Source of the DNA: Nitrospirota bacterium
GTDB lineage: Bacteria; Nitrospirota; JACRHJ01
Length of the DNA: 64,000 nt
Direction: 5' to 3'
Assembly: GCA_027328825.1 (NCBI GenBank)
Contig: DAHWTK010000001.1
Coordinates: 16,703-80,702, forward strand
Positions within the stretch are counted from its first letter, which is position 1, and each line of letters begins with the position of its first letter. Positions 8,059 through 63,900 of the stretch are shown piece by piece. Both the position numbers and the translations under genes were made by a program. Under the pieces are notes generated by a model, which saw only the letters and a program-made list of their open reading frames with translations, made no database searches and was not told the origin of the DNA.

Positions 8059-9204
8059 TTACGCCGCCTTTTCCGCCATGCCCTCGATCTTTTTTGCAAT
8101 CGCCGCCAGGACGTCGTTATACGAGTCGCTGAATTTCTTCACCCCTTCTTCCTCAAGCCGCTCCGTCGCCTGTTCCAGGTTTATGCCAATGGAAAAAATC
8201 TTCTCGAACACGTCCCGCGCGTCCTGAAGGTCCTGCTCTATCGTTATGCGGACCTTCCCGTGGTCCCTGAACTTCGTAAGCGTATCGAGCGGCATGGTAT
8301 TCACGGTATCCGGGGCAATCAACTCCTCCACGTATTTTATGTCGCTGTACTTCGGATTTTTGGTGCCTGTCGAGGCCCAGAGGAGCCTCTGGGCGTTCGC
8401 GCCGTTCTCGCGTATATGTCTGAAACCGGTGCCCAGGAACATCTCCTTGTATTTCTGGTAGGCGAGCTTGCAGTTGGCTACACCCGCCTTGCCGTAGAGA
8501 TTTTTTATTCTGCGCTCCTCATTCTCCGTGCCTGCCGCCGGGAGTTTTTCATTGAACATCGTATCGAAAAGGGTGTCCACCCGGCTGACGAAGAAACTCG
8601 CCACGGAGTGTATGTCGGAGACGGGAAGCCCCTCGCTTATCCGCCTCTCTATCCCCCTGAGATATGCCATGGCCACGGCCTCATATCTCTGGACGGAAAA
8701 AAGGAGCGTCACGTTTACGTTTATGCCTTCCGCGGTCAGCTCTTCCACGGCCCGGACTCCTTCCGGGATTCCCGGTATCTTGACGAGTATATTCTTCCGG
8801 CCTATCTCGGAGGCCAGCCGCCTGGCCTCGTTTATGGAGGCGTCCGCGTCCCGCGCCAGCTTCGGCGAGACCTCGATGCTTACGTAACCGTCCTGCCCGC
8901 CGCTCCTGTCGTAGACCTCTTTCAAAATATCCGCGGCCTCGCGGATGTCTTCGGTGGTTATCGTCTCGTAAATCTTTTTCGGTTCCGAGGCGGTGCTTCC
9001 GGCCAGTTCCTTTATCTGCGCGTCGTAGATGTCGCTTCCCTCGATTGCGCCCTGGAAGATGGTCGGGTTGGACGTAATGCCGGAGACGTTATCCTCCCGC
9101 ACGAGCGCGCCGAGCCTGCCGGAGCGGATGATGTCGCGGCTTAAAAAGTCGAGCCAGATGCTCTGCCCTGCCTGGTTCAGTTGGATTAAAGGGTTGCCTG
9201 CCAT
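8059..9204 (-). CDS. tal: transaldolase
   Basis: 381 aa; SIWLDFLSRD, SGITSNPTIF and the active-site region are typical transaldolase strings. Confidence 0.9.
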   Translation of the reverse strand: MAGNPLIQLNQAGQSIWLDFLSRDIIRSGRLGALVREDNVSGITSNPTIFQGAIEGSDIYDAQIKELAGSTASEPKKIYETITTEDIREAADILKEVYDRSGGQDGYVSIEVSPKLARDADASINEARRLASEIGRKNILVKIPGIPEGVRAVEELTAEGINVNVTLLFSVQRYEAVAMAYLRGIERRISEGLPVSDIHSVASFFVSRVDTLFDTMFNEKLPAAGTENEERRIKNLYGKAGVANCKLAYQKYKEMFLGTGFRHIRENGANAQRLLWASTGTKNPKYSDIKYVEELIAPDTVNTMPLDTLTKFRDHGKVRITIEQDLQDARDVFEKIFSIGINLEQATERLEEEGVKKFSDSYNDVLAAIAKKIEGMAEKAA

Positions 9205-9220
9205 GTCGGCCTCCGCAGTT

Positions 9221-11308
9221 TTATGAATATTTTGCCGCCGCCCTCTTTTTCGGCGCAGCGTTTTTCCGGTTTAAGAGCTTCCCGGCGTTCTCGATGATAT
9301 TGTCCGCGGTGAAACCGAACTTCTCCATGTTTACGCTTCCAGGCGCCGATGCCCCGAAACGGTCTATTCCGATGGTTACGCCCGAAGGCCCGGCGTATTT
9401 ATCCCAGCCGAAGACAGAGGCGGCCTCTACCGTTATCCGCGCCGTTACGCCGGGCGGCAGGACCTTGTCTTTGTATTCGCGGGGCTGCATCTCGAACGTC
9501 TCGCGGCATGGCATACTCACCACCCTTGCGGCCACGCCCTCGCCGACGAGTCTCTCATAGGCCTCAAGGGCTGTGTGAACCTCCGAGCCCGTAGCGATAA
9601 TGACAATTTCCGGACGCCCTTTCGGGGCGTCGGCCAGAATGTACGCCCCCATGTGAAGCCCTGCTGCCTTGGCGTATTTTTTCCTGTCGATTACGGGAAC
9701 TTTCTGCCGTGTCAGCACGAGCGCTACAGGCCCGTCCTTTTCCAGCAGCGCCGATTTCCATGCCTCGGCGGTCTCATTGGCGTCCGCCGGACGGATTACC
9801 CTTATCCCCGGCATGGCCCGAAGCGACGCAAGCTGCTCTATCGGCTGGTGTGTCGGGCCGTCCTCGCCAAGGGCGACGGAGTCGTGCGTGAAGACGTATA
9901 TAACCTTGACCCGGGATAGCGCGGCCAGGCGGATGGCGGGCCGCATATAATCCGAGAATATCAGAAACGTGGCCGCGAACGGGATAAGACCGCCGTGCAG
10001 CGAAATACCGTTGCTTATGGCCGCCATCGCGTGCTCTCTTACGCCGTAAGCGATATTCGCCCCGCCGTAGCCCCAGTGTCCTGTGACGGCGCCCTGCACG
10101 CCTTCGTCCCCGCCCGCCGGGTTCTGAAAATCTCCCCTTCCGTCCATGGCGGTATTCGTCGAGGGGTCGAGGTCTCCGGAGCCGCCGATTAGAGACGGGA
10201 TTTTCTCCGCCACCGCGTTAAGCGTCTTGCCGGCGGCGGAGCGCGTGGCAATACCCTTTTTGTCAGGCGGAAAGACCGGAATATCTCCGTCCCAGCCTTC
10301 CGGGAGCTTCGGACCCGTCATCAGCTCCCACTGCGCCAGGAGTTCCGGATATTTCCTGCCGTAGGAACGCATCAGCTCCGTCCATTCCTCCTCCCGACCG
10401 GCGCCTTTCGCCCCCGCCTCGCGGAAGACCTTGAGCGCCTGGTCCGGCACATAGAACACCTCGTCGGGAGGCCAACCCAGATTGTCCTTTGTAAGCCGCG
10501 TCTCTTCGGCCCCAAGTGGCGAGCCATGCGCCTGATAACTGTCCTGCTTGTTCGGGCTTCCGTAGCCCAGGTGCGTACGGACGGCGACAAGCGACGGCCT
10601 GCCCGTCTCCTCCTTCGCCGCCGTGACTGCCCTGGATATTGCGTCCAGGTCGTTTCCGTCCTCCACGCTCTGCGTGTGCCAGCCGTAGGCATCGAAGCGC
10701 TTTATAACGTCCTCCGTGAAGGACAGCTTCGTATCCGCCGAAAGCGTGGTGTGGTTGTTGTCGTATATGTAAATCAGCTTGCCGAGTTTCAGGTGTCCCG
10801 CAAGCGACGCCGCCTCGGAGGCGACGCCTTCCATCAAATCACCGTCGCTCGCTATGGCGAAGGTGCAGTGGTCCACTATCTCGTGTCCGGGACGGTTGAA
10901 AAGGGCGGCCATGTATCGCTCTGCGATTGCCATGCCGACGCCGTTTGCAAAACCCTGGCCGAGCGGCCCCGTCGTACACTCGACCCCGGGGGTATGCCCG
11001 TATTCCGGATGGCCGGGGGTTTTGCTGCCCCATTTGCGGAAGTTCTTTATGTCGTCGAGCGAGAGGTCGTATCCCGTAAGGTAGAGCATTGCGTAAAGAA
11101 GCATGGAGCCGTGCCCGGCGGAGAGGACGAAACGGTCCCGGTCGGCCCAGAGAGGGTTCCTGGGGTTGTATTTCATGAACCTGGTCCACAGGACGTGCGC
11201 AATCGACGCGGTGCCCATGGGCATACCGGGATGCCCGGAGTTTGCGTTTTCGACTGCGTCCACAGCAAGGAAGCGTATCGTGTTGACGCACAGATCCTCA
11301 ATGCCCAT
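9221..11308 (-). CDS. tkt: transketolase
   Basis: TPP-binding region [21 protein letters not shown]-terminal transketolase domains; ORF-track start 11383 may be a 25-codon extension; ATG at 11308 (MGIEDL...) preferred; a GGAGGGG upstream also permits a TTG start at about 11323. Confidence 0.9.
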
Positions 11309-11531: not shown

Positions 11532-12620
11532 ATGAACATGGATTTTGTCCCGAAATGGATTGCATGGGAAGTTACCCGCCGATGCAACCTCAGCTGTGTC
11601 CACTGCCGCTCGGCGTCCACGACGAACTCCTTCGATACCGCATTTGATACGGACGAGGCCAGGAAACTGCTTGACGACATTGCCGCGTTCTCGGCCCCCG
11701 TAATCGTCCTCTCCGGCGGAGAGCCGCTCCTCAGGGCCGACCTCTTCGAGATTGCCTCGCACGGGACAAAACTCGGCCTTCGGATGTGCATAGCCACGAA
11801 CGGCTTCCTCGTCACGGACGACGTCTGCGGGAAGATGAAAGAGGCCGGGATAAAGATGGTCTCTATGAGTCTCGACGGGTCTGACGCCGGCACTCATGAT
11901 AATTTTCGCGGCCAGCCCGGGGCGTTCGATGGGGTAGTCCGAGCCGCATCCCTTTTCAATAAGCACGGTATCGAATTCCTGATTAATTCCTCCTTTACTA
12001 AGCGTAACCAGAAGGAGATCCCGGAGGTAATGAAGCTCGCCAAGAGCCTGGGCGCGAAGGCGTGGTACATGTTCATGATCGTCCCGACGGGCCGAGGCGA
12101 GGGGATAATGTCCGAGCTTATCAGCAAGGAAGATTACGAGGAGCTTTTGAAATGGCACTACGAAACGGAAAAGCATGAGTCCGAAATCCTCATGCGCCCG
12201 ACGTGTGCGCCGCATTACTACCGCATCGTGCCGCAGATGAATAAACTTGCCGAAGAGGGGGATAAGCTGGAGCGCAGGACGCTGAAATTTTCTACCGGCG
12301 GCTCGAAAGGCTGCCTTGCCGGGCAGGTGATATGCCTCATTACCGCCGAGGGCGAGGTGTATCCTTGCAGCTACTTCCCGCACTCCGCCGGGAACGTCAA
12401 GAAGACGCCGTTCAAGGAGATATGGGAGGGCGCGCCGTTATTCCATGAGCTTCGGGACTTCAAGAAATACAAGGGCAAGTGCGGCGTGTGCGAATATATT
12501 AATGTTTGCGGCGGCTGCCGCGCCCGGGCCGACGCCGTATACGGCGATTATTTGCAGGAAGAGCCGTTCTGCAACTATACCCCGGCAAGGATGAGGAAGG
12601 ATAAGGCGGGGAAAGATTAG
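11532..12620 (+). CDS. ahbD: radical SAM/SPASM-domain protein, AhbD/NirJ-like (putative coprohaem/Fe-coproporphyrin decarboxylase, haem synthase)
   Basis: CX3CX2C (CNLSCVHC) radical-SAM cluster near the N-terminus plus a C-terminal Cys-rich SPASM region (CLAGQVIC...CSYF...[13 protein letters not shown]); sits in a cluster with hemE/hemH. Confidence 0.65.
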
Positions 12621-12671
12621 CTGTCATTCCGAGCGCAGCTGAGGAATCCACCGTTGATTTAGTTACTTATA

Positions 12672-13223
12672 ATGGCGGAAAAAGAATCACATTCTATAAG
12701 AAACGGAATCATTGCCGGAGTTGTCAGCGGCCTTGTTTTAGCATTAATTTTATCTTCTTTTGTACGCGTTTTAGCAATTAAGATTGTGATGGTATTATGG
12801 GACGGAATTCTTTGGGTGGCACATGTTCTAATATCCACCTATTCCATTCCCGGATGGGTGCTACTAATTATAATCCTATTATCAGTTCCGGGCATAAAAT
12901 CTTTATTTAGAATTGTTAGAAAACAAGAAGAACCGGAGTATAAAAACTTTACAGAAGCCATAATTTTTAGAGCGAAGTGGCGATGGGTTTGGCTTGGAAA
13001 CCGCATTCATAACTTATGGTGTTTTTGTCCAATATGTGATGCAACGCTTGTTTATTCCTATAATGATATTCTTAAAGAGGAAACAAAGTTTTTTTGCGAA
13101 CGATGTAATCGTGTTGTATCAAGTGTACCGGGTGGAGATAAAGAATATGCTGTGAGTGCCGTCACACGCGAAATTGACCGCCTTGTACGAACCAATGAAT
13201 ATAAAAATATCTTGAATAAATAA
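12672..13223 (+). CDS. hypothetical membrane protein with C-terminal zinc ribbon (low-GC, probably horizontally acquired)
   Basis: 183 aa; two hydrophobic helices at the N-terminus, then CFCPICD-x20-CERCNR; roughly 38% GC versus about 60% in flanks; weak RBS. Confidence 0.5.
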   Translation: MAEKESHSIRNGIIAGVVSGLVLALILSSFVRVLAIKIVMVLWDGILWVAHVLISTYSIPGWVLLIIILLSVPGIKSLFRIVRKQEEPEYKNFTEAIIFRAKWRWVWLGNRIHNLWCFCPICDATLVYSYNDILKEETKFFCERCNRVVSSVPGGDKEYAVSAVTREIDRLVRTNEYKNILNK

Positions 13224-13238
13224 TCAGGAGAATTTTTC

Positions 13239-14285
13239 ATGTCCGACTACCGCTTCATAAGCGCCTGCTTCAGTAAACCCGTTGACAGAACTCCGATCTG
13301 GCTCATGCGCCAGGCGGGGCGGTTCATGGAGGAATACCGCGCCGTCCGCGCGAAGGTGGACTTCCTTACGCTCTGCAAGTCCCCGGAGCTATGCACGGAG
13401 GTAACGCTTCAACCTATCGACAAGTTCGGCATCGACGCCGCGATACTGTTCTCCGACATATTAATCCCCGTCGAGGCAATGGGCGTCAAGCTCGACTTCA
13501 ACCCTGCTCCCGTCTTCGAGAAGCCGATACGCACACAGGCGGACGTGGACGCGCTCCGAGTAATCGACCCTCTTGCCGACGTGCCGTTCGTGCCGGAGAC
13601 GGTCAAGATGCTGAGACGCGAGCTTGAATCCCGCAATGTGCCGCTAATCGGCTTCGCCGGCGCGCCCTTTACGCTGGCGAGCTACATGGTCGAGGGCGGC
13701 GGGAGCAGGAGCTTTCGGCACCTGAAGACCATGATGTGGAGCGCGCCGAAGGTCTATCGCTCCCTGATGGAGAAGCTTACAGAGACCGTGATAAAGTATC
13801 TGAACGCGCAGGTGGATGCGGGCGCGCAGGCGATACAGCTCTTCGACACCTGGGGCGGAGTGCTCTCTCCGGCGGATTACCTTAACTTCGTCATGCCGTA
13901 TACGAGGCTCGTCATCCAGGGCATAAAAAAATCGCCGGAAGGCAAGAAGGTCCCGGTAATAAACTTCGTCGGGAACAGCCAGGGTTTCATGCCGCTCGTC
14001 GCGCAGGCGGGCGGGGACGTCATAGGCATCGACTGGCGCATAGACATCGCCGCCGCACGGAGCCAGGTCGGAGGCAAGGCCGTCCAGGGCAACATGGACC
14101 CGGTATTCCTCCTTGCGCCCATCCCGGAGATAGAGAAGCGCGTGAAGGAAATCCTGGCCGCCGCCGGCGATACCGGGCACATATTCAACCTAGGCCACGG
14201 CATAATCCCTGAAACGCCGCCCGACCACGTCAAGGCGCTGGTCGATTTCGTCCACGAGTTTGGTGAGAGCCACAGGGTAAAATGA
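13239..14285 (+). CDS. hemE: uroporphyrinogen decarboxylase
   Basis: 348 aa; PIWLMRQAGR signature; AGGAGAA RBS. Confidence 0.92.
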   Translation: MSDYRFISACFSKPVDRTPIWLMRQAGRFMEEYRAVRAKVDFLTLCKSPELCTEVTLQPIDKFGIDAAILFSDILIPVEAMGVKLDFNPAPVFEKPIRTQADVDALRVIDPLADVPFVPETVKMLRRELESRNVPLIGFAGAPFTLASYMVEGGGSRSFRHLKTMMWSAPKVYRSLMEKLTETVIKYLNAQVDAGAQAIQLFDTWGGVLSPADYLNFVMPYTRLVIQGIKKSPEGKKVPVINFVGNSQGFMPLVAQAGGDVIGIDWRIDIAAARSQVGGKAVQGNMDPVFLLAPIPEIEKRVKEILAAAGDTGHIFNLGHGIIPETPPDHVKALVDFVHEFGESHRVK

Positions 14286-15262
14286 ACGAAAAGGCTGTCC
14301 TTCTTATGACCATGGGAGACCCGTCCGACGTGCGCGGGGTGTTCCCATACCTGATGAAGCTTTTCATGGACCCGAACATCCTGCGGGTGCCGGGGCCGGT
14401 GCGCCCGTTTCTCGCTTTTTATATATCCCTTATGAAAAAAGAGCCTGTGAAGGAGAAATACCAGGCGATAGGCGGCGGCTCCCCGATGGACGCGATTACC
14501 GAAAGGCAGGCCAGCGCGCTCCGCGAGGCGCTGAAGGACAAAAGCATCTTCGTATACCACGCCAACAGGTATACGGCGCCCTCCATACAGGATGCCTACC
14601 GACAAATAAAAAGTCACGGCATTAGAAAGCTCCTTGCCCTTCCTCTGTATCCACACTTCTCGCCCGCGATAACCGGCTCTGGTTTCGGCCTCCTGAAAAC
14701 CCTTGCGGAGAAAGACCCGGACCCGCCGGAGGTTGTATATTACGAAGGCTTCGGCGCGGACACGAGGTTCATAAAGCTTCTTGCGCAGAGAATGCGGGAC
14801 GCCCTGGAAAAACTCCTCAAGGCCATACCCGCCCATGAAGCCGGCGAGCCGGAGCGCCCGATATCCGTGATATTCTCGGCGCACAGCCTGCCGGAAGAGT
14901 TGATAAGCAAAGGAGACCCGTATCTCGACAATGTCATGCAGACCGCCTCGATGCTCCAGGAAGAGCTTGGGGAGATAAGCACGCACGTCGGCTTCCAGAG
15001 CAAGGGACGCGCGGGCATGGAATGGCTGAAGCCCGAGACGGACGAAGTAATAAAGACAGTTGCCGCATCCGGTTCACGCGGCGTGGCAGTCGTGCCCATA
15101 AGCTTCGTCTCCGAGAACGTCGAAACGCTCTACGACTGCGACATCCTCCAGAAATCCCTTGCCGCCTCGCTCGGCATGAAATACGAAAGGTCGAATAGCC
15201 TGGACGACGACCCCGCCTTCATAAATTTCCTCGCGGAACTCGCGCTGGAAAAACTTTCATAA
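14282..15262 (+). CDS. hemH: ferrochelatase (possibly coproporphyrin ferrochelatase)
   Basis: 326 aa ferrochelatase-family sequence; start overlaps hemE stop. Confidence 0.85.
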   Translation: MNEKAVLLMTMGDPSDVRGVFPYLMKLFMDPNILRVPGPVRPFLAFYISLMKKEPVKEKYQAIGGGSPMDAITERQASALREALKDKSIFVYHANRYTAPSIQDAYRQIKSHGIRKLLALPLYPHFSPAITGSGFGLLKTLAEKDPDPPEVVYYEGFGADTRFIKLLAQRMRDALEKLLKAIPAHEAGEPERPISVIFSAHSLPEELISKGDPYLDNVMQTASMLQEELGEISTHVGFQSKGRAGMEWLKPETDEVIKTVAASGSRGVAVVPISFVSENVETLYDCDILQKSLAASLGMKYERSNSLDDDPAFINFLAELALEKLS

Positions 15263-15300
15263 CGTAAGCTGTCCGCCACCCATACGAAAAAGCTTTATGT

Positions 15301-15605
15301 CCGTTATTCCCGCAAAAGCGGGAATCCAGGAATTTGCCTGTCATTCTGCTTTTTCATAACGCCCCCTATGTCCCCCTCTTAATCTTAAGAGGGGGATAAA
15401 GGTAAACCGAACTGTCCACCCGCCTGTCATTCTGAGCCCGTTCGGCTCCGCTCAGGGCAGGCTCCGCGAAGAATCCGCTTCCACTTTCGTCATTCCCGCG
15501 AAGGCGGGAATCCAGGAATTTTGCCTGTCATTCCCGCCCCGGCTCCGGCGGGAATCCAGGCATTTGCCTCTGCCTGTCATTCTGAGCAACGCGAAGAATC
15601 TGTTT
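15301..15605. repeat. cluster of REP-like palindromic repeats (ATTCCCGC-loop-GCGGGAAT hairpins followed by CCAGGNATTTGCCTGTCATTC, plus CTGTCATTCYGAGC...CGARGAATC motifs)
   Basis: hairpin units at about 15306, 15491 and 15532; GTCATTCYGAGC...GARGAATC motif at 15423-15476 and 15572-15600 and again at 12621-12650. Confidence 0.65.
15371..15396. other. perfect 12-bp-arm palindrome TCCCCCTCTTAA-tc-TTAAGAGGGGGA
   Basis: read directly; about 110 nt downstream of hemH stop; could be a terminator-like hairpin or a protein site. Confidence 0.6.
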
Positions 15606-30800: not shown

Positions 30801-32540
30801 TTAAGTCCTTTCTGGTGTTACGGGGATATATGGTATGTCTATATTGACGCTCGTGCCCTGGCCCAAGAGGCTTTTTACTGCAATCGTTCCGCCGTGGTCT
30901 TCGATTATCTTGCGGCAGATGGCGAGTCCGATGCCGGTCCCCTTTTCCTTGGTGGTAAAGAAAAGGTCAAATACTTTAGGCAGGTCCGCCTCCGGTATGC
31001 CTGCACCCTGGTCCGATATTGCTATTTTGATTGTATCGTCCGACCGGCTCGCTGAAATTCCCATTCTGCCGCCCTCATGTGAGGCGTCTATTGCGTTTAT
31101 CAGGAGATTCAGGAAAACCTGCCGTATCTGATTAAGATCAATCATAGCCATTTCTATGCCGGAACACTTTCTTACTACATTGAGACTTTTTTCGCTGATT
31201 GCAACAAAATGAAATTCCAGGACGTTTTCTATAAGCGAACATATATCGACGGGCTGTCTATGCAGTTTTACTGTCCGGTTATACAGAAGCATATCTTCTA
31301 CAAGCCGGTTCAGCCTGCTTGTCTCCGAGAGCATGGCCTGCACTAGCGGCCTGATAGGATTTTCGTCACTCGTTTCCCTTGCTATTATCTGTGCGACCGA
31401 GGTAATGCCGAAAAGCGGGTTTCTTATCTCGTGTGCGACGCCGGCCGCGACCTTCCCGACCGCCGCAAACCGCTCCTTCTCACGGAGATCGTCCTGGAGT
31501 TTTTTTATCTCGCTCAAATCCCTGAACACAATAATAAAACCTTCCGGATTCCCGTCCCTGGAAATAAGATGGTTGTTGTTGAAACCTACCGGGACGGCTC
31601 CTCTTGGCGTAAGAATTTCCACCTCGTCGCCTATTATCCGCGGCTTGACCTCCAGCATACCAGCCGCCTCCGGATAAATGAGCGTTATGTCCTTCCCGAT
31701 TATTGCCTCGCGGTCGCACCCCAATATCTCAGATCCGGAGATGTTTATCATTTTTACCTTGCCAGTCAGATCGGTAACGAGGAGCCCTGCGGCCATATTG
31801 AAGATGATACTGTCAAGCAGATGCTCGTTTTTCTTTATTTTCCCCATGTTTTTTATATTGCTCATAAGACTTGCGGCGGAGTTGGCAAAAAGGTTCAGGG
31901 AGTTCAGATCATCCTGGGTTATGGGCTTTTTACTCACATGGTTGTCGGCGCATATAAGGCCGAAATTCCTTCCCATCGTATTCGTCTTGTATATCGGGCA
32001 GTTTCCGCAAATATCCATCCGGGAAAGCATGTTGTCGCTGCCGCGCAGCATTCTACAGCTATTTTCTATAACCCAGCAGGACAGAAGGGGACTGTTTCTT
32101 GACGGGCAATTCTCGTCATTGCATCCAAAATATTTCCAGCATATCAGTTGACGATTTTCCGGATTATATGTTACCAACGGAGCTACGGCTATCTCTGCGC
32201 CGCCGGAGCGCCCTTTTATTATTCCGCAAAGTGGCTTCGATGTTGTAAAAGCCTCGCTCTTGTCGAGTTTGAGTGCTTCGAGCCCGGACACCTCCAACGG
32301 AGTCGACAGTTCTTCGCCTGCCGTGCTATGACATGCAGCGAGACGGCGGGTACCATCGCTATCGTCTATAAGCCACAGACATACCCTGTCGAACCCTATG
32401 GCCTCCGCCACTGCCCAGACTGCTATATTGGCCGCCTCCTGCAAGTCGCCTGAAACTCTTACGCGGTTGGAAAACCAGTTAAGAATAAATAGCTGGTTCA
32501 GTTTTTTTTCGTATAAATCACCTGTCGATTTGAATGTCAA
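30801..32540 (-). CDS. sensor histidine kinase (GAF - 7-Cys module - PAS - HisKA - HATPase), cytoplasmic
   Basis: 579 aa, no TM segments; H-box HEIRNPLFGI; G-boxes; Cys module at aa 134-185; TTG start with GGAG RBS. Confidence 0.85.
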   Translation of the reverse strand: MTFKSTGDLYEKKLNQLFILNWFSNRVRVSGDLQEAANIAVWAVAEAIGFDRVCLWLIDDSDGTRRLAACHSTAGEELSTPLEVSGLEALKLDKSEAFTTSKPLCGIIKGRSGGAEIAVAPLVTYNPENRQLICWKYFGCNDENCPSRNSPLLSCWVIENSCRMLRGSDNMLSRMDICGNCPIYKTNTMGRNFGLICADNHVSKKPITQDDLNSLNLFANSAASLMSNIKNMGKIKKNEHLLDSIIFNMAAGLLVTDLTGKVKMINISGSEILGCDREAIIGKDITLIYPEAAGMLEVKPRIIGDEVEILTPRGAVPVGFNNNHLISRDGNPEGFIIVFRDLSEIKKLQDDLREKERFAAVGKVAAGVAHEIRNPLFGITSVAQIIARETSDENPIRPLVQAMLSETSRLNRLVEDMLLYNRTVKLHRQPVDICSLIENVLEFHFVAISEKSLNVVRKCSGIEMAMIDLNQIRQVFLNLLINAIDASHEGGRMGISASRSDDTIKIAISDQGAGIPEADLPKVFDLFFTTKEKGTGIGLAICRKIIEDHGGTIAVKSLLGQGTSVNIDIPYIPVTPERT

Positions 32541-32639
32541 ATTACACTCCTTATAAAAATTATGCCTGTAAAAATAAGTTATTAATCAAATACTAATAGA
32601 TGTTTAATAATACCTTGTTGTATTATCATTAATTTAGTA

Positions 32640-32657
32640 AGCAATAAATATGCCAAT
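32640..32657 (-). promoter_or_regulatory. sigma-54 promoter TGGCAT-N5-TTGCT about 100 nt upstream of the histidine kinase
   Basis: minus-strand atTGGCATatttaTTGCT; identical hexamers and spacing to the 29332 element. Confidence 0.55.
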
Positions 32658-32765
32658 ATGAGCGCGCCGAAAAACCGTGGCAATAATATCAGATCTGGCC
32701 TTTACGAATGGGTGGCAGAACAAAGTGTAATATATTAAGGTCGCCCGATTGGGAAAGTTCGTTCT

Positions 32766-32803
32766 CAGTAGATTCTACTGCTAATAGTGACAACTTATTG
32801 TCA
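32766..32803. promoter_or_regulatory. two palindromes (CAGTAGA-t-TCTACTG and TGACAA-cttat-TTGTCA), candidate enhancer sites for the upstream sigma-54 promoter
   Basis: read directly, 110-160 nt upstream of the -24/-12 element. Confidence 0.3.
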
Positions 32804-32820
32804 AAACTGAATTATTAAGA

Positions 32821-32935
32821 AAAAACAAAGATTTCCCAGGCGGTATCGGGAATGGCGCAAAAAATACGCGAAAACGGGCTGTTTTGTGCAAAAATAGGGC
32901 GCGGGGAGAATTAAAAAATATTGATTAAAATCACG
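32821..32935 (+). promoter_or_regulatory. about 115-nt segment homologous to 15811-15925, ending in a TTGATT-N17-TAAATT promoter for tRNA-Leu
   Basis: GGCGGTATCGGGAA...TTTTGTGCAAAAA...GCGGGGAG...TTGATT; the -10 element lies about 18 nt before the tRNA 5' end. Confidence 0.5.
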
Positions 32936-32966
32936 GGCTATGATAAATTTACAGATTCAAAGTTTC

Positions 32967-33049
32967 GCGAGAGTGGCGGAACTGGCAGACGCGCCGGACT
33001 TAGGATCCGGTGGGCAACCATGGGGGTTCAAGTCCCCCCTCTCGCACCA
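32967..33049 (+). tRNA. tRNA-Leu (anticodon TAG), CCA encoded
   Basis: acceptor stem GCGAGAG/CTCTCGC, anticodon stem CCGGA/TCCGG with loop CTTAGGA, long variable arm, T-arm GGGGG-TTCAAGT-CCCCC, discriminator A, CCA. Confidence 0.85.
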
Positions 33050-33352
33050 TTTGATAAGCCTCGGGAAAACCTGATTGAATCGTATGCCAACCTGAATAAT
33101 CATCCCGGCATGCAACAGATTGGCGACGGGACACAAAAGGTTTTTTATTCTCCGTTATGCCATCCTTTAGTTGACAATCTCGGAATTTACCCTTGACACT
33201 TTCAGTGTAATCATGGGATATTATATATTTAACAAAAAAAGGGCTATCTTTTGACTCCTGCCGGGCTTGCAACCTAATCAGGTCAGGAACGTTTTCCCAA
33301 CTTATTGGAATTGAAGTAAAATCCGCATGTAACTTAAGGAGACCATGGCCAG

Positions 33353-34645
33353 ATGAAATTCGAGATTGAAGAACTCGCAAAGACCAGAAAACGCCTCAAG
33401 GTAGAGATATCCGCCGAGGACATAAACACCGCGCTTAACAAGGCGTATGCGGAACTGAACAAGTCCGTGAAAATAGAAGGTTTTCGCCCCGGACATGCCC
33501 CCAGGGGAATCCTCGAGAAAAAATATGGCAAGAGCGTCGAGGCGGACGTCATAGAGAGGATAATACCGGTAAATTACTTACAGGCCGTCCGGGAGTCCGG
33601 CATCGTTCCTGTTGACGAGCCGAAGTTTTCTGAAAACGATTTCAGGATAAAAAAGGGAGAGCCGCTTTCCTTTACCGCGGAGGTGGAGGTCAGGCCGGAT
33701 ATTTCCTTGAATTATAGCGACATAGAAGTCCCGGAGGAGGAGCTTTCCGTCTCGGACGAGGAACTTTCCTCGGCCCTTGAGGAGTTGCGGGACGTAAATT
33801 CCACCCTCGAAGCGGTGGCTGAGGACCGTCCTGCCGCAGAGGGAGATTTCGCCGTAATAGATTTTGAAGGGTTCATAAACGGGGCTCCCATACCGGGTGG
33901 AAAGGCCGAAAACTACCCCTTGAACCTGGGTTCCGGGAGCTTCATTCCGGGCTTCGAGGAGCAGGCGACGGGGATGAAAAAGGGGGAGGAAAAGGAAATT
34001 ACCGTAACGTTTCCCGAGAGTTATAAAAGTGCAGACCTCGCCGGGAAGGAAGCGGTCTTCAAGATAGCCCTGAAGGACATAAAAAAGAAAATCCTCCCTG
34101 AGCTCGACGATGAATTCGCTAAGGACACAAGGATTGCCGAAAGCCTGGAGGAAATGAAGTCAAAGGTGCGCGAAGACATTCTTGGCATAAAACGCCGAAA
34201 CCAGGCCGAGAGGCAAAAAGACAGGATAATGGAGGAACTCGGGAAGCGGCACGACTTCGAACTGCCCCAGTCCCTGGTGGACAGGGAGACAGGCTCCCTG
34301 AAGGCAAAGAAGCGCCGGGAACTTATGTCTTCGGGCCTCAAGCCGGAGGAAGCCGGGGCCGAGATGAAGCGATTCGAAGAGGAGGCCGTGAAAATGGCCT
34401 CCGAGAGGGTGAAGGTGTCCCTGGTCCTTGCCGCAATATCGGACAGGGAAGGCGTCCGGGTTTCGGACCAGGAACTCGATTTGGGCATACAGCGCCTGGC
34501 GGCCCAGACGGGGCATAACCCCAGGGATTTAAAAGAGCTTTATATGCGGCGGGAAGGCGGCATGGAAGCCCTGCGCGGTATGCTTGGGGAAGATAAAACG
34601 CTTGAGCTCGTGCTCTCGCAGGCAAAAAGGGTCAAGGCCGCCTGA
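33353..34645 (+). CDS. tig: trigger factor
   Basis: 430 aa; N-terminal ribosome-binding domain with GFRPGHAPR signature, FKBP-type PPIase middle, C-terminal arm. Confidence 0.9.
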   Translation: MKFEIEELAKTRKRLKVEISAEDINTALNKAYAELNKSVKIEGFRPGHAPRGILEKKYGKSVEADVIERIIPVNYLQAVRESGIVPVDEPKFSENDFRIKKGEPLSFTAEVEVRPDISLNYSDIEVPEEELSVSDEELSSALEELRDVNSTLEAVAEDRPAAEGDFAVIDFEGFINGAPIPGGKAENYPLNLGSGSFIPGFEEQATGMKKGEEKEITVTFPESYKSADLAGKEAVFKIALKDIKKKILPELDDEFAKDTRIAESLEEMKSKVREDILGIKRRNQAERQKDRIMEELGKRHDFELPQSLVDRETGSLKAKKRRELMSSGLKPEEAGAEMKRFEEEAVKMASERVKVSLVLAAISDREGVRVSDQELDLGIQRLAAQTGHNPRDLKELYMRREGGMEALRGMLGEDKTLELVLSQAKRVKAA

Positions 34646-60983: not shown

Positions 60984-63900
60984 TGAACATCTCCCGCCCG
61001 TTTATAACCCGTCCGGTCGCAACGACACTCCTGATGATTGCCATCATCCTGGCCGGCGCCGTGGCATACCGCCAGCTCCCGGTCGCCGCCCTGCCGCAGG
61101 TGGAATACCCGACAATCCAGGTGCGGACGTTCTATCCGGGCGCAAGCCCGGACGTCATGGCCTCGTCCGTTACGGCGCCGCTTGAGCGCCAGTTCGGCCA
61201 GATGCCGGGCCTTGCCCAGATGACCTCGGCAAGCTCAGGCGGCAGTTCCATAATCACGCTTCAGTTCGGCCTGGACCTGAGCCTCGACATCGCCGAGCAG
61301 GAGGTGCAGGCGGCAATCAACGCGGCTGGGACCTTCCTGCCCAAAGACCTCCCGAACCCGCCCGTGTACAGCAAGGTCAACCCCGCGGACGCGCCGGTAC
61401 TTACGCTCGGCCTCACTTCGGATTCCATGCCCCTGCCGCAGGTGGAAGACCTGGCCGACACGCGGTTCGCGCAGAAGATTTCCCAGCTTCCGGGCGTGGG
61501 GCTTGTGAGCATCGGCGGGGGCCAGAAGCCCGCGGTGCGCGTGCGCGCGAACCCGACTGTCCTCGCCTCCTACGGCATGACGCTCGAGGATCTGCGCACG
61601 GCAATCGGCGCCGAGAACGTCAACCAGGCGAAGGGCAGCTTCGACGGCCCGCACCAGTCTTACATCATCGGGGCGAACGACCAGCTCCTTTCGAGCAAGG
61701 AATACCGCTCTCTCGTCGTGGCCTATAAAAACGGCGCGCCCGTGAAGCTTTCGGACGTCGCGGAGGTTATGAACGGGGCCGAGAACGTGCAGGAGGCGGC
61801 CTGGATGAACAAGACCCCCGCCGTGATACTCAACATCCAGAGGCAGCCCGGCGCGAACGTAATCGCCGTCGTGGACAGGATAAAACAGCTCCTGCCCCAG
61901 CTTGAAACCTCCCTGCCGCCCTCGATACACGTCACGATACTTACCGACCGCACCACCACCATCCGGGCCTCGGTGCGGGACGTGCAGTACGAGATGCTCC
62001 TCGCCATAGCGCTTGTCGTAATGGTCATATTTCTCTTCCTCCGGAACCTCTACGCGACTGCCATACCGAGCGTCGCAGTCCCTCTGTCCCTTGTCGGGAC
62101 GTTCGGCGTAATGTATCTCATGGGCTTCAGCCTGAACAACCTCTCGCTCATGGCGCTCACAATATCCACGGGTTTTGTCGTGGACGACGCCATAGTCATG
62201 ATAGAGAACATAGCGAGATTCGTCGAACAGGGAGACCCGCCTCTCGAAGCCGCCCTGAAGGGTTCAAAACAGATAGGGTTTACAATCCTCTCCCTGACCG
62301 TCTCACTTATCGCCGTCCTGATACCGCTTCTTTTCATGGGGGACATAGTAGGCCGCCTTTTCAGGGAGTTCGCCCTGACGCTGGGCGTAACGATACTCAT
62401 CTCGGCGGTCGTCTCCCTGACTCTTACGCCGATGATGTGCGCGAGGCTCCTGAAACACACGCCGGAGGAGAAACAGGGGCGATTTTACCACTGGTCTCAG
62501 GGAATGTTCGACAGGATGATAGCGCGCTACGGAAAGGCCCTGCGCTTCGTGCTGAACCACCAGAACACTACGCTGCTCGTCGCCCTGGGCACGCTCGTTC
62601 TGACGGTCCTTCTGTACATGGCCATCCCGAAGGGTTTCTTCCCGATACAGGATACGGGGGTTATACAGGGAATATCGGAGGCGCCGCAGTCCATATCCTT
62701 CCCCGAAATGGCCGTGCGCCAGCAGAAACTGGCGGCTGTAATCCTCAAGGACCCGGCGGTGGAAAGCCTTTCTTCCTTCATCGGCGTGGACGGGACGAAC
62801 ACGACGCTCAACACCGGCCGCATACTTATAAACTTAAAACCGCTCTCAGACCGCGGCATGAGCGCGAGCGCCATTATAAGGCGGCTTAAGCCTAAGCTCG
62901 CAGCCGTCCGGGGCATAAGGCTTTTCATGCAGCCGGTGCAGGATCTGACCGTGGACGTGCGCCAGAGCCGCACGCAGTTCCAGTATACGATGGAAGACCC
63001 GAGCGCCGACGAGCTCGACACCTGGGCGCCCCGCATAATAAAGAAATTTGAAACCCTGCCGGAGCTTGCCGACGTTAGCAGCGACCAGCAGAACAGGGGG
63101 CTTCAGGAAAACCTCGACATAGACAGGAGCACGGCCTCGAGGCTCGGCATCACGCCGCAGACCATAGACGACACGCTCTACGACGCCTTCGGCCAGAGGC
63201 TCATATCCACCATGTTCACGGAGCTGAACCAGTACCGGGTCGTGATGTCCGTAAAGCCGGAGTTCCAGCAGGACCCGCTGGGGCTTAAGTCCATATACCT
63301 CAGGAGCTCCGGCGGCGGAGAAGTCCCGCTCGGCGCGATTACCAGGGCCTCGGAAACGACTGCCCCGCTCGTGATAAACCGCCTGGGGCAGTTCCCGGCG
63401 GTAACGGCTTCATTCAATCTCGCGCCGGGCGCGTCCCTGGGCGGCGCGGTTTCGGCGGTGGAGAAGGCCGTAAAGGGCCTCGGGGTTCCGGCAAGCATAC
63501 AGACGAGCTTCCAGGGCACGGCGCAGGCGTTCATAGCCTCCCTCTCCAACGAACCCCTGCTGATCCTCGCCGCGCTCATTACGGTCTACATAATCCTCGG
63601 CGTCCTCTACGAGAGCTACATCCATCCCGTGACGATACTCTCCACCCTGCCGTCGGCTGGCGTCGGCGCGCTCTTGGCGCTCATGATTTTTCATTCCGAC
63701 TTGAACGTCGTCGCCATAATCGGCATCATACTCCTCATTGGTATCGTGGAGAAGAACGGCATCATGATGGTCGATTTCGCGCTCGACCTCGAGAGAAACG
63801 AAGGCAAAAGCCCGACCGAGGCGATATACCAGGCGTGCCTGCTCCGGTTCCGGCCTATACTCATGACGACCTTTGCGGCGCTACTGGGCGCTCTTCCGCT

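Follow-up and report, generated by a model that had tools for sequence, protein, structure and literature searches.

Only a few systems are known in which a second line of defence is tied to restriction, with PrrC, PARIS and Ronin being the only illustrations so far. In Ronin, which was described in E. coli ECOR55 (Silas et al.), the effector RonA, a protein of 61 aa with one transmembrane (TM) helix, is encoded in tight linkage to hsdM/hsdS; it is lethal alone, HsdMS suppresses it, and anti-restriction proteins (Ocr, ArdA or Aop1) release it (bioRxiv 10.1101/2023.04.06.535777). PrrC (PrrC/EcoprrI) is embedded in a type IC restriction-modification (R-M) locus and is activated upon inhibition of R-M, and it is regarded as an R-M guardian (PMC12707154). 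Here, a gene from a 64,000-nucleotide stretch of a Nitrospirota bacterium (assembly GCA_027328825.1, contig DAHWTK010000001.1, positions 16,703 to 80,702; hereafter the window) is compared with these systems. The gene, termed gene X, encodes a membrane-anchored zinc-ribbon protein (183 aa) from a family without a name (X) and lies between an ahbD-like gene and hemE, on the segment 12621-13238 of the window. This segment is almost certainly a horizontally acquired foreign insertion of a single gene, and the gene X product is, with a probability of roughly 45%, a defence-type membrane effector or sensor.

The likeness to Ronin consists in a membrane-protein gene located at hsdM/hsdS, as X abuts hsdS in ten loci of relatives. 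However, RonA comprises only 61 aa with one TM helix and is without a zinc ribbon, whereas X proteins are about 185-195 aa long and contain a structured soluble domain. Furthermore, Ronin loci lack hsdR (decoy R-M), while the islands with X have it, and the window copy as well as most other family members are without adjacent hsd genes. The 183-aa window copy, with its hydrophobic hairpin and zinc-ribbon domain, differs from RonA in size and architecture. With PrrC, the X copies of the R-M clade share their place in a type I operon, after hsdS and before hsdR, and also the concept of a second-line effector that is coupled to an R-M complex (PMC12707154). PrrC is, however, a cytoplasmic ABC-ATPase-like anticodon nuclease, whereas X is membrane-embedded, and no Pfam or NCBIfam match to the PrrC/RloC-type ABC-ATPase and anticodon-nuclease domains was found in X. 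As X contains no PrrC domains, does not have the size of RonA and resides in islands that keep hsdR, it belongs to neither family. By analogy, it is hypothesised that X might work like Ronin or PrrC.

A further likeness exists to the small membrane effectors of abortive-infection and signalling defence systems, such as the 2TM and TIR-TM proteins of CBASS and Pycsar or the RexB-type proteins, which are also short, combine N-terminal TM helices with a small cytoplasmic sensing domain and occur in defence islands. Pycsar TM effectors are even found among the neighbours of gene X family members. However, no PADLOC model fits X, and X, being a single gene, is not accompanied by a conserved cyclase or any other source of a signal. 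Generic zinc ribbons (PhnA/YjdM, TFIIB, HVO_2753-type and the N-terminal region of DpnI) share with X two Cys knuckles which are 18-28 residues apart on beta-hairpins, but the Trp-rich sheet and the arginine-stripe helix of X are without counterpart in them.

Insertion between ahbD and hemE

A first-pass annotation, made from the letters of the window, had read the segment 12621-13238 as a recent horizontal insertion of low GC content that splits a haem operon. This was followed up by comparing the orthologous loci L084, L085 and L086/L087 (the label L with a number denotes a genomic locus in this study), whose HemE proteins are 95%, 94% and 89% identical to that of the window, respectively. 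The close HemE relatives overall stand at 97, 95, 94 and 89% identity, and more distant ones (74-75% identical) are labelled Nitrospirae or Nitrospirota by their sources, on which the description of the lineage as Nitrospirota-like rests. All of L084-L087 share the gene order tal-tkt (- strand)/ahbD-hemE-hemH (+ strand) with the window. In the DNA alignment, homology with all relatives ends at the stop codon of ahbD and restarts at the ATG of hemE; 12621-13238 is therefore exactly the lineage-specific segment. In L085 the distance between ahbD and hemE is 3 bp without any insert, and L086/L087 contain an empty spacer of 117 bp. X-like DNA is absent from L084-L087, and so is any GC-typical homolog of gene X at this position; the foreign block is also unmatched elsewhere in the window. 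The flanks share 85-91% nucleotide identity with L084 and L085 (ahbD 87-91% with the relatives), which qualifies the age that had been proposed. The insertion is lineage-specific, yet it is recent only in the sense of postdating the split from these relatives and not on the level of strains.

The junction in L084 is not empty. It holds a different low-GC cargo (L084:3525-4000; GCA_021789495.1, JAJYJM010000002.1) of two overlapping small genes, which encode a DUF4258 protein (89 aa, E = 4.6e-5) and a DUF2283 protein (69 aa, E = 4e-16) and constitute a toxin-antitoxin (TA)-type pair. The GC content of this pair is 0.41 and its GC content at third codon positions (GC3) is 0.44-0.49, compared with 0.81 for hemE; no mobility genes were found nearby. 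As the L084 junction contains different foreign cargo, the ahbD|hemE junction is an insertion hotspot, and it took up foreign small genes at least twice. Small genes of putative defence or TA type have here been captured twice independently in an essential biosynthetic operon without a mobility gene, and capture sites such as ahbD|hemE would be missed by island-based defence-discovery pipelines.

The composition of the segment is in agreement with its foreign origin. In 200-bp windows, the GC content drops to 0.34-0.40 over 12600-13200, compared with 0.52-0.62 on both sides. The open reading frame (ORF) of gene X, which is present at 12672-13223 on the + strand, has a GC content of 0.368, compared with 0.566 for ahbD and 0.57-0.60 for the host. 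Its GC3 is 0.29 (ahbD 0.74, hemE 0.80, hemH 0.72), which is 6.5 standard deviations under the mean for 39 long window ORFs (0.667 +/- 0.058), and its codon-adaptation score, trained on the same 39 ORFs, is 0.50 compared with 0.73 +/- 0.04. The low GC content of the segment between ahbD and hemE is thereby confirmed, and together with the exact boundaries and the empty or differently filled junctions of the relatives it supports the horizontal insertion that had been claimed.

The left edge of the segment had been described as a repeat of a family clustered at 15300-15600. Indeed, the repeat CTGTCATTCCGAGCG...GAGGAATCC at 12621-12649 (+ strand) is a genuine member of a family of inverted repeats, similar to repetitive extragenic palindromic (REP) elements, whose related copies cluster downstream of hemH at 15424-15438, 15489-15513, 15527-15557 and 15574-15588 (+ strand; pattern matches). 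With up to two mismatches the repeat pattern was matched four times, compared with 0.18 expected matches, and GTCATTC-N(6-36)-GAATCC had three exact matches compared with 0.06 expected. However, the left-edge element (GTCATTCC...GGAATCC) does not belong to the foreign DNA. As its GC content of 0.586 is typical of the host, the compositionally foreign block proper, which consists of a leader, gene X and a spacer, is 12650-13238 (+ strand; GC 0.363). According to the DNA alignment the repeat is not found in the empty ahbD|hemE junctions of the relatives. Short GC-rich REP-like repeats might promote illegitimate recombination at these sites. A function of the left-edge repeat as terminator or stable hairpin was rejected, as its folding energy of -12.8 kcal/mol is no better than that of shuffled sequences (z = -0.98). 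A further REP-like copy is located at 62058-62072.

A transposon-like insertion was dropped as well, because neither a target-site duplication nor terminal direct or inverted repeats flank the insert. No mobility gene adjoins the window copy of gene X, and the sole tRNA of the window is distant (32967-33046). The insertion itself is ordinary horizontal transfer, very cleanly documented.

Gene X has the same orientation as the operon. No Shine-Dalgarno (SD)-like motif precedes its ATG, as had already been noted in the first reading, while at least 26 of 41 host ORFs carry one; a search for a promoter or terminator of gene X yielded nothing beyond the expectation from shuffled sequences. The SD of hemE (AGGAG, 13226-13230, + strand, 8 nt upstream of the hemE ATG) is, by reading of the sequence, part of the 3' terminal stretch of the insert. 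Gene X would be transcribed by read-through from the ahbD promoter, presumably without being polar on hemE and hemH.

Protein architecture

The gene X product had been described as a membrane protein with a cytoplasmic zinc ribbon, and the hydropathy peaks, the helices of an AlphaFold (AF2) model and the family-invariant Cys pattern all bear out the membrane and zinc-ribbon parts of this description. Only the spacer after CFCPICD needs correction, as it comprises 18 residues and not 20. The confidence (pLDDT) is 85.9 for the full-length model and 93.2 for that of the soluble domain (residues 84-183), and the models contain helices at residues 9-54 and 61-82, 157-173 and 177-182.

The protein starts with a conserved N-terminal motif (residues 1-11; 12672-12704, + strand), in which the family pattern H-x-[IV]-R-N-G-I-I-A begins; R10, N11, I14 and A15 are conserved to at least 90% in the family alignment. 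The sequence is hydrophobic without interruption from residue 8 to residue 83, and its Kyte-Doolittle profile peaks at 12-32, 33-56 and 59-80. From these peaks and the model helices, the membrane region (residues 12-80; 12705-12911, + strand) would form a helical hairpin of two TM helices, possibly with an additional interfacial helix. The soluble domain of about 95 residues begins approximately 10 residues from the membrane segment. It contains a Trp-rich beta-hairpin (residues 101-118, AKWRWVW...LWC; 12972-13025, + strand; model strands 101-108 and 111-118), of which W103, W105 and W116 are invariant and R104 is conserved to at least 90%. This is followed by the zinc ribbon C117-F-C119-P-I-C122 ... 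C142-E-R-C145 (13020-13106, + strand). C117, C119, C142 and C145 are invariant and C122 is conserved to at least 90%; strands flank both knuckles in the models, and a six-stranded beta region bears both of them in the AF2 model. The conserved pattern suggests that the Cys knuckles bind Zn(II). An amphipathic helix near the C-terminus (residues 157-173 in the model; 13140-13190, + strand) exhibits a stripe of three invariant arginines, R166, R170 and R173, with the spacing i, i+4, i+7, and its median net charge across the family is +2. Altogether, 14 residues are invariant in the family (W103, W105, W116, C117, C119, P120, L126, T138, C142, E143, C145, R166, R170 and R173). The window copy keeps all of them and nearly all of those that are conserved to at least 90%.

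Family members follow a single architecture, which consists of the R-N-G-I-I-A motif, a hydrophobic stretch of roughly 70 residues, a linker similar to YTED, the Cys/Trp core (WRWxW...LWCFCPxC...T-x-F-x-C-E-x-C) and the arginine helix (R-E-I-x-R-x-x-R). No informative domain fusions were found among the longer members. One metagenomic protein of 492 aa (P0316) contains two tandem soluble domains behind one membrane segment, and judged from this sequence the domain may act as a dimer.

An unnamed protein family

Searches of Pfam, NCBIfam, PADLOC and PHROGs with the gene X product yielded nothing above threshold. The initial statement that no family could be assigned is therefore correct with respect to named families, but the protein does belong to a large unnamed one. 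A word-indexed search returned 94 homologs of similar length with 35-54% identity. An exhaustive profile search, which covered 1.84 billion cluster representatives, returned at least 2,224 representatives at E <= 1e-3, of which 1,160 also passed E <= 1e-10; the length of almost all representatives is 180-200 aa. Weak matches to generic zinc-ribbon models of Pfam were obtained for some members (Zn_Ribbon_YjdM for 8 of 42, DpnI for 5 of 42), all under the curated cutoffs. The match to DpnI (DpnI/Dam-replacing family, PF06044, of the PD-(D/E)XK fold; E = 0.005) reached 17.1 bits compared with a cutoff of 26.7, covered only ribbon and helix and was rejected as zinc-ribbon noise, and DpnI structures are absent from the Foldseek and PDB-profile matches of the gene X product. 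A match to DpdJ (E = 0.014) was rejected for the same reason. With the models of the full-length protein and of the soluble domain, Foldseek gave no match in the PDB at E < 0.2 (best E 0.2 and 0.6). BFVD, a set of predicted viral structures, yielded only generic ribbons, some of them labelled 'Lar restriction alleviation', with a best E of 0.06, which is not significant. A sequence-profile search of the PDB with the family profile gave no match, and no description of the family was found in the literature. The family is hence undescribed in the libraries and literature searched and is without a detectable relative of solved structure.

Relatives of gene X are present in only 22 of about 185,000 species-representative genomes. 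These are spread across about ten phyla and include Syntrophorhabdaceae, Latescibacterota, Terriglobia, Nitrospirales, Gamma-, Beta- and Alphaproteobacteria, Opitutaceae, Kiritimatiellota, Planctomycetota and Arcobacteraceae; one metagenome-assembled genome (MAG) contains two copies. The difference in GC content between gene and flanks ranges from -0.14 to +0.03 across the family loci, with the gene being below its flanks in most of them, and the window copy is the most extreme with about -0.18. At one locus (L083) the family copy adjoins fragments of an insertion sequence (IS) of the IS5 type, between housekeeping genes. The family is thus horizontally mobile and patchily distributed. A phage origin of gene X was dropped, as none of 50,697 phage records contained a match.

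Among 72,556 plasmids a single copy was found, on pAFAEC of Aliarcobacter faecis. It is flanked by two DUF262 genes, two DUF2971 genes and an HNH gene on one side and by a Tn3 transposase on the other. This copy (L091:9001-9552; NZ_CP053838.1 20705-21256) is annotated as a shorter 'hypothetical protein' (9175-9564). Judged from the sequence its start has probably been mis-called, so that the annotation loses the membrane region.

Type I restriction-modification islands

At ten distinct loci (L001/2/9, L006, L008/10, L013, L016, L018, L082, L088, L089 and L090) a family member is embedded in a type I R-M island. The order of genes in these islands is an hsdM fused to an HTH(XRE) domain, sometimes a small Asp-protease-like ORF, hsdS, X, variable cargo, hsdR and a YgjP-like gene. 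X is the first gene after hsdS in all ten loci, either with a gap of 9 nt or with an overlap of 8-11 nt, and X is thereby genetically coupled to hsdS in a fixed fashion in one clade. The distance between X and hsdR is 2.6-7.4 kb, and hsdR is present in all complete R-M-embedded loci. The cargo in between includes DUF3800, SLFN/AlbA_2, TIR_2, LD_cluster2, ThsB-TIR, AIPR, MNT/HepT, HicA, PIN/Phd and Fic proteins, a STAND protein of 2,036 aa with NACHT/AAA_16 and a GHKL-Mrr protein. The content of this slot changes rapidly among the HTH-hsdM islands.

A neighbour-joining tree groups the R-M-embedded copies of X in a single clade, in which two orphans, i.e., copies without adjacent hsd genes, are nested. 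Identities among the ten loci are 77-94% for HsdM and 59-90% for X. As there is one clade and HsdM is 77-94% identical, the loci represent a single family of R-M islands, which became dispersed over different phyla, and not ten independent associations. This island family was found in Latescibacterota, Nitrospirales and Gammaproteobacteria. In the gammaproteobacterial MAG CBDCTH01, the hsdM-hsdS-X-...-hsdR island occurs on two contigs (L008 and L010) in near-identical layout, which is either a duplication or a redundancy of assembly or binning.

Neighbourhoods outside the islands

In the same tree, gene X of the window is the long-branch sister to the R-M clade plus four orphans, and the copy most similar to it (52.5% identity) is R-M-embedded. 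Three of the four sister-group orphans adjoin restriction-type genes, namely a type III Res helicase-endonuclease together with DUF6650 (L005), an SF1-helicase-DUF559 nuclease (L027) and an HSDR_N_2 protein (L003).

For loci outside the R-M clade, the 149 ORFs within +/-2 genes of X were surveyed. The Pfam matches included Mrr_cat and NA-iREase1 (three each), integrases, DUF3800 and DUF2971 (two each), ArdA, RadC, YoeB and a Y2 transposase. The PADLOC matches comprised two type IV restriction endonucleases, one of type III, a Pycsar cyclase with TM effectors, Mokosh MkoA/C and several PDC candidates. As a control, 89 ORFs from the rest of the window and from the far flanks of L005-L074, called in the same manner, were searched at equal threshold. 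This control set also gave several PADLOC matches. They were mostly to generic models (HEAT repeats and models for sigma-54 activators and radical-SAM 'pVip'), but some were to 'mad' (MADS) models and one was a strong match to GajA. As the control set also matched PADLOC models, the survey does not demonstrate an enrichment and is suggestive at most. The match to GajA (Gabija; E = 5e-94) comes from one of ten candidate ORFs. If this ORF lies in the far flank of a family locus, defence neighbourhoods would reach past 6 kb. Clustering of the neighbours at 72 non-redundant loci revealed no conserved partner gene outside the R-M clade and a conserved gene order in Arcobacteraceae.

Proposed function and alternatives

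In the first reading gene X had been left as 'toxin or defence-type or regulatory'. The restriction and defence neighbourhoods narrow this to defence-type, although this assignment remains unproven. The gene X product would be an inner-membrane protein of defence type. Its soluble domain is assumed to lie in the cytoplasm, since a Cys4 site requires reducing surroundings, and it may act as a sensor or tether that binds a nucleic acid or a protein partner, a role suggested by the Trp-rich strand and the invariant arginine stripe (i, i+4, i+7). In the R-M clade this partner might be HsdM2S or an inhibitor of that complex. The role of effector would fall to the hydrophobic hairpin, which upon being triggered would oligomerise or rearrange and compromise the membrane, and the growth of the infected cell would stop as a consequence of the membrane damage (abortive infection).

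That the product is specifically an R-M guardian with a mode of action like that of PrrC or Ronin is a doubtful extension of this idea, which is made by analogy. In such a guardian, the domain of zinc ribbon and arginine stripe would dock on HsdM2S or directly sense an acidic anti-restriction protein that mimics DNA, such as Ocr or ArdA, and a block of restriction would lead to the collapse of the membrane. For orphan copies, including the one between ahbD and hemE, the R-M systems to be guarded would be encoded in trans. If this unlikely case applied, X would represent a new and widespread class of guardians that parallels Ronin and PrrC in mechanism and is unrelated to them in sequence and fold.

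Several observations weigh against a role in defence. No known domain links the gene X product to defence, and none of the PADLOC-DB v2 families (5,027 models) matches it even at E <= 10. Family members are absent from the phage records and nearly absent from the plasmids mentioned above. The linkage to R-M is effectively one evolutionary association, and 0 of 55 metagenome loci show it. No hsdM, hsdS or hsdR is detectable in the 64-kb window, so that the window copy itself is an orphan; if X is toxic unless caged by HsdMS in cis, such abundant orphans would be unexpected. The missing SD makes the translation of gene X in the window host uncertain, and the PADLOC matches of the control set belong here as well. 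Finally, a subfamily in Arcobacteraceae/Epsilonproteobacteria (L022, L024-L026, L068, L069, L071 and L076; 30-36% identity over the soluble domain) has a GC content native to its hosts and a conserved, housekeeping-like synteny of MFS, X, a YchJ-like gene, YaaA and MerR. This subfamily may be a domesticated or an ancestral non-mobile form. The YchJ-like neighbour bears a SEC-C motif.

The Arcobacteraceae synteny, in which YaaA is a peroxide-stress protein, would also fit the alternative that fares best, i.e., that X is a non-defence membrane protein for signalling or stress, for example a metal- or redox-sensing or nucleic-acid-binding anchor, which is often transferred. The restriction genes nearby would then merely reflect variable regions that collect both kinds of genes. 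Such a role would also agree with the many loci at which X has housekeeping neighbours (PGK, GshA, ribosomal protein S15 and DapB), with the background matches in the PADLOC control and with a family that is large, uniform in length and in this sense housekeeping-like. However, a housekeeping protein would hardly be expected to show a phyletic patchiness as extreme as that of X or a GC content below that of the host at most loci. Moreover, X is a fixed member of the R-M island, and gene X is dispensable in the lineage of the window, as it is absent from the closest relatives examined. This explanation is therefore regarded as unlikely.

The islands themselves allow another reading, in which X belongs to type I R-M as an accessory subunit that does not kill. 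As a membrane tether or regulator it would place HsdM2S(R2) at the inner membrane, where foreign DNA enters, or modulate the complex there; orphan copies would serve a type I system whose genes lie elsewhere in the genome. The hsdS-X junction, which is fixed and translationally coupled in all ten loci while the downstream cargo turns over, would suit a subunit, and the same applies to the position of X as always the first gene after hsdS and to the short distance of about 10 residues between soluble domain and membrane. Yet, the majority of members have no adjacent hsd genes (all 55 loci from metagenomes, the window copy and the subfamily of Arcobacteraceae), orphans adjoin type III and type IV systems and not type I, and X evolves faster than HsdM. 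An accessory subunit hence appears rather improbable.

It is still less probable that X is a selfish membrane toxin or an exclusion factor of mobile elements, which would serve addiction or entry exclusion and not the defence of the host against phages. Small hydrophobic proteins are frequent among toxins, a sister genome holds the TA-type pair at the same junction, and the neighbours of X include integrases, Tn3, the Y2 transposase, ArdA, RadC and YoeB as well as the IS fragments at L083. However, the clustering of neighbours revealed no conserved antitoxin partner, the window copy is not accompanied by a mobility gene, and family members are nearly missing from plasmids and completely missing from phages. 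Very improbable, finally, is a window copy that is a non-functional passenger, tolerated as it is non-polar, untranslated for want of an SD and heading to decay: the missing SD and promoter, the low codon-adaptation score (0.50 compared with 0.73) and the long branch in the tree would be in line with this, but the frame is intact and of full length, the invariant and nearly all highly conserved residues are kept, and the start codon fits the conserved N-terminus of the family.

If X is indeed a defence-type protein, an unnamed family of more than 2,000 clusters becomes a candidate for a single-gene anti-phage or R-M-guardian effector, and the fixed hsdS-X junction amid the turnover of cargo would be a natural system for the wiring of second-line defence to restriction. 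If it is not, the locus represents an ordinary, well-documented horizontal insertion of an uncharacterised membrane protein.

Flanking genes and other features of the window

The insert is flanked on the left by an intact host gene for an AhbD-like radical SAM/SPASM protein (11532-12620, + strand), which matches the Radical_SAM and SPASM domains of Pfam. Its best NCBIfam model is TIGR04545 (haem b synthase) with 440.6 bits, which is under the cutoff of 500 bits. The host genes on the right are hemE (13239-14285, + strand; URO-D, E = 1e-131) and hemH (14282-15262, + strand; ferrochelatase, E = 5e-83). The AhbD-like gene is kept in an operon with hemE and hemH and not with genes of the sirohaem pathway. 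This grouping might point to an oxygen-independent coprohaem decarboxylase for the coproporphyrin-dependent route of haem biosynthesis.

Of the low-GC patches in the window, the second strongest (GC 0.36) spans 32201-33400 and is mostly non-coding. It is flanked by a sensor histidine-kinase-like ORF (30801-32540, - strand) and by an ORF of 430 aa (33353-34645, + strand). The tRNA at 32967-33046, which is the sole Rfam match of the window, lies inside this patch.

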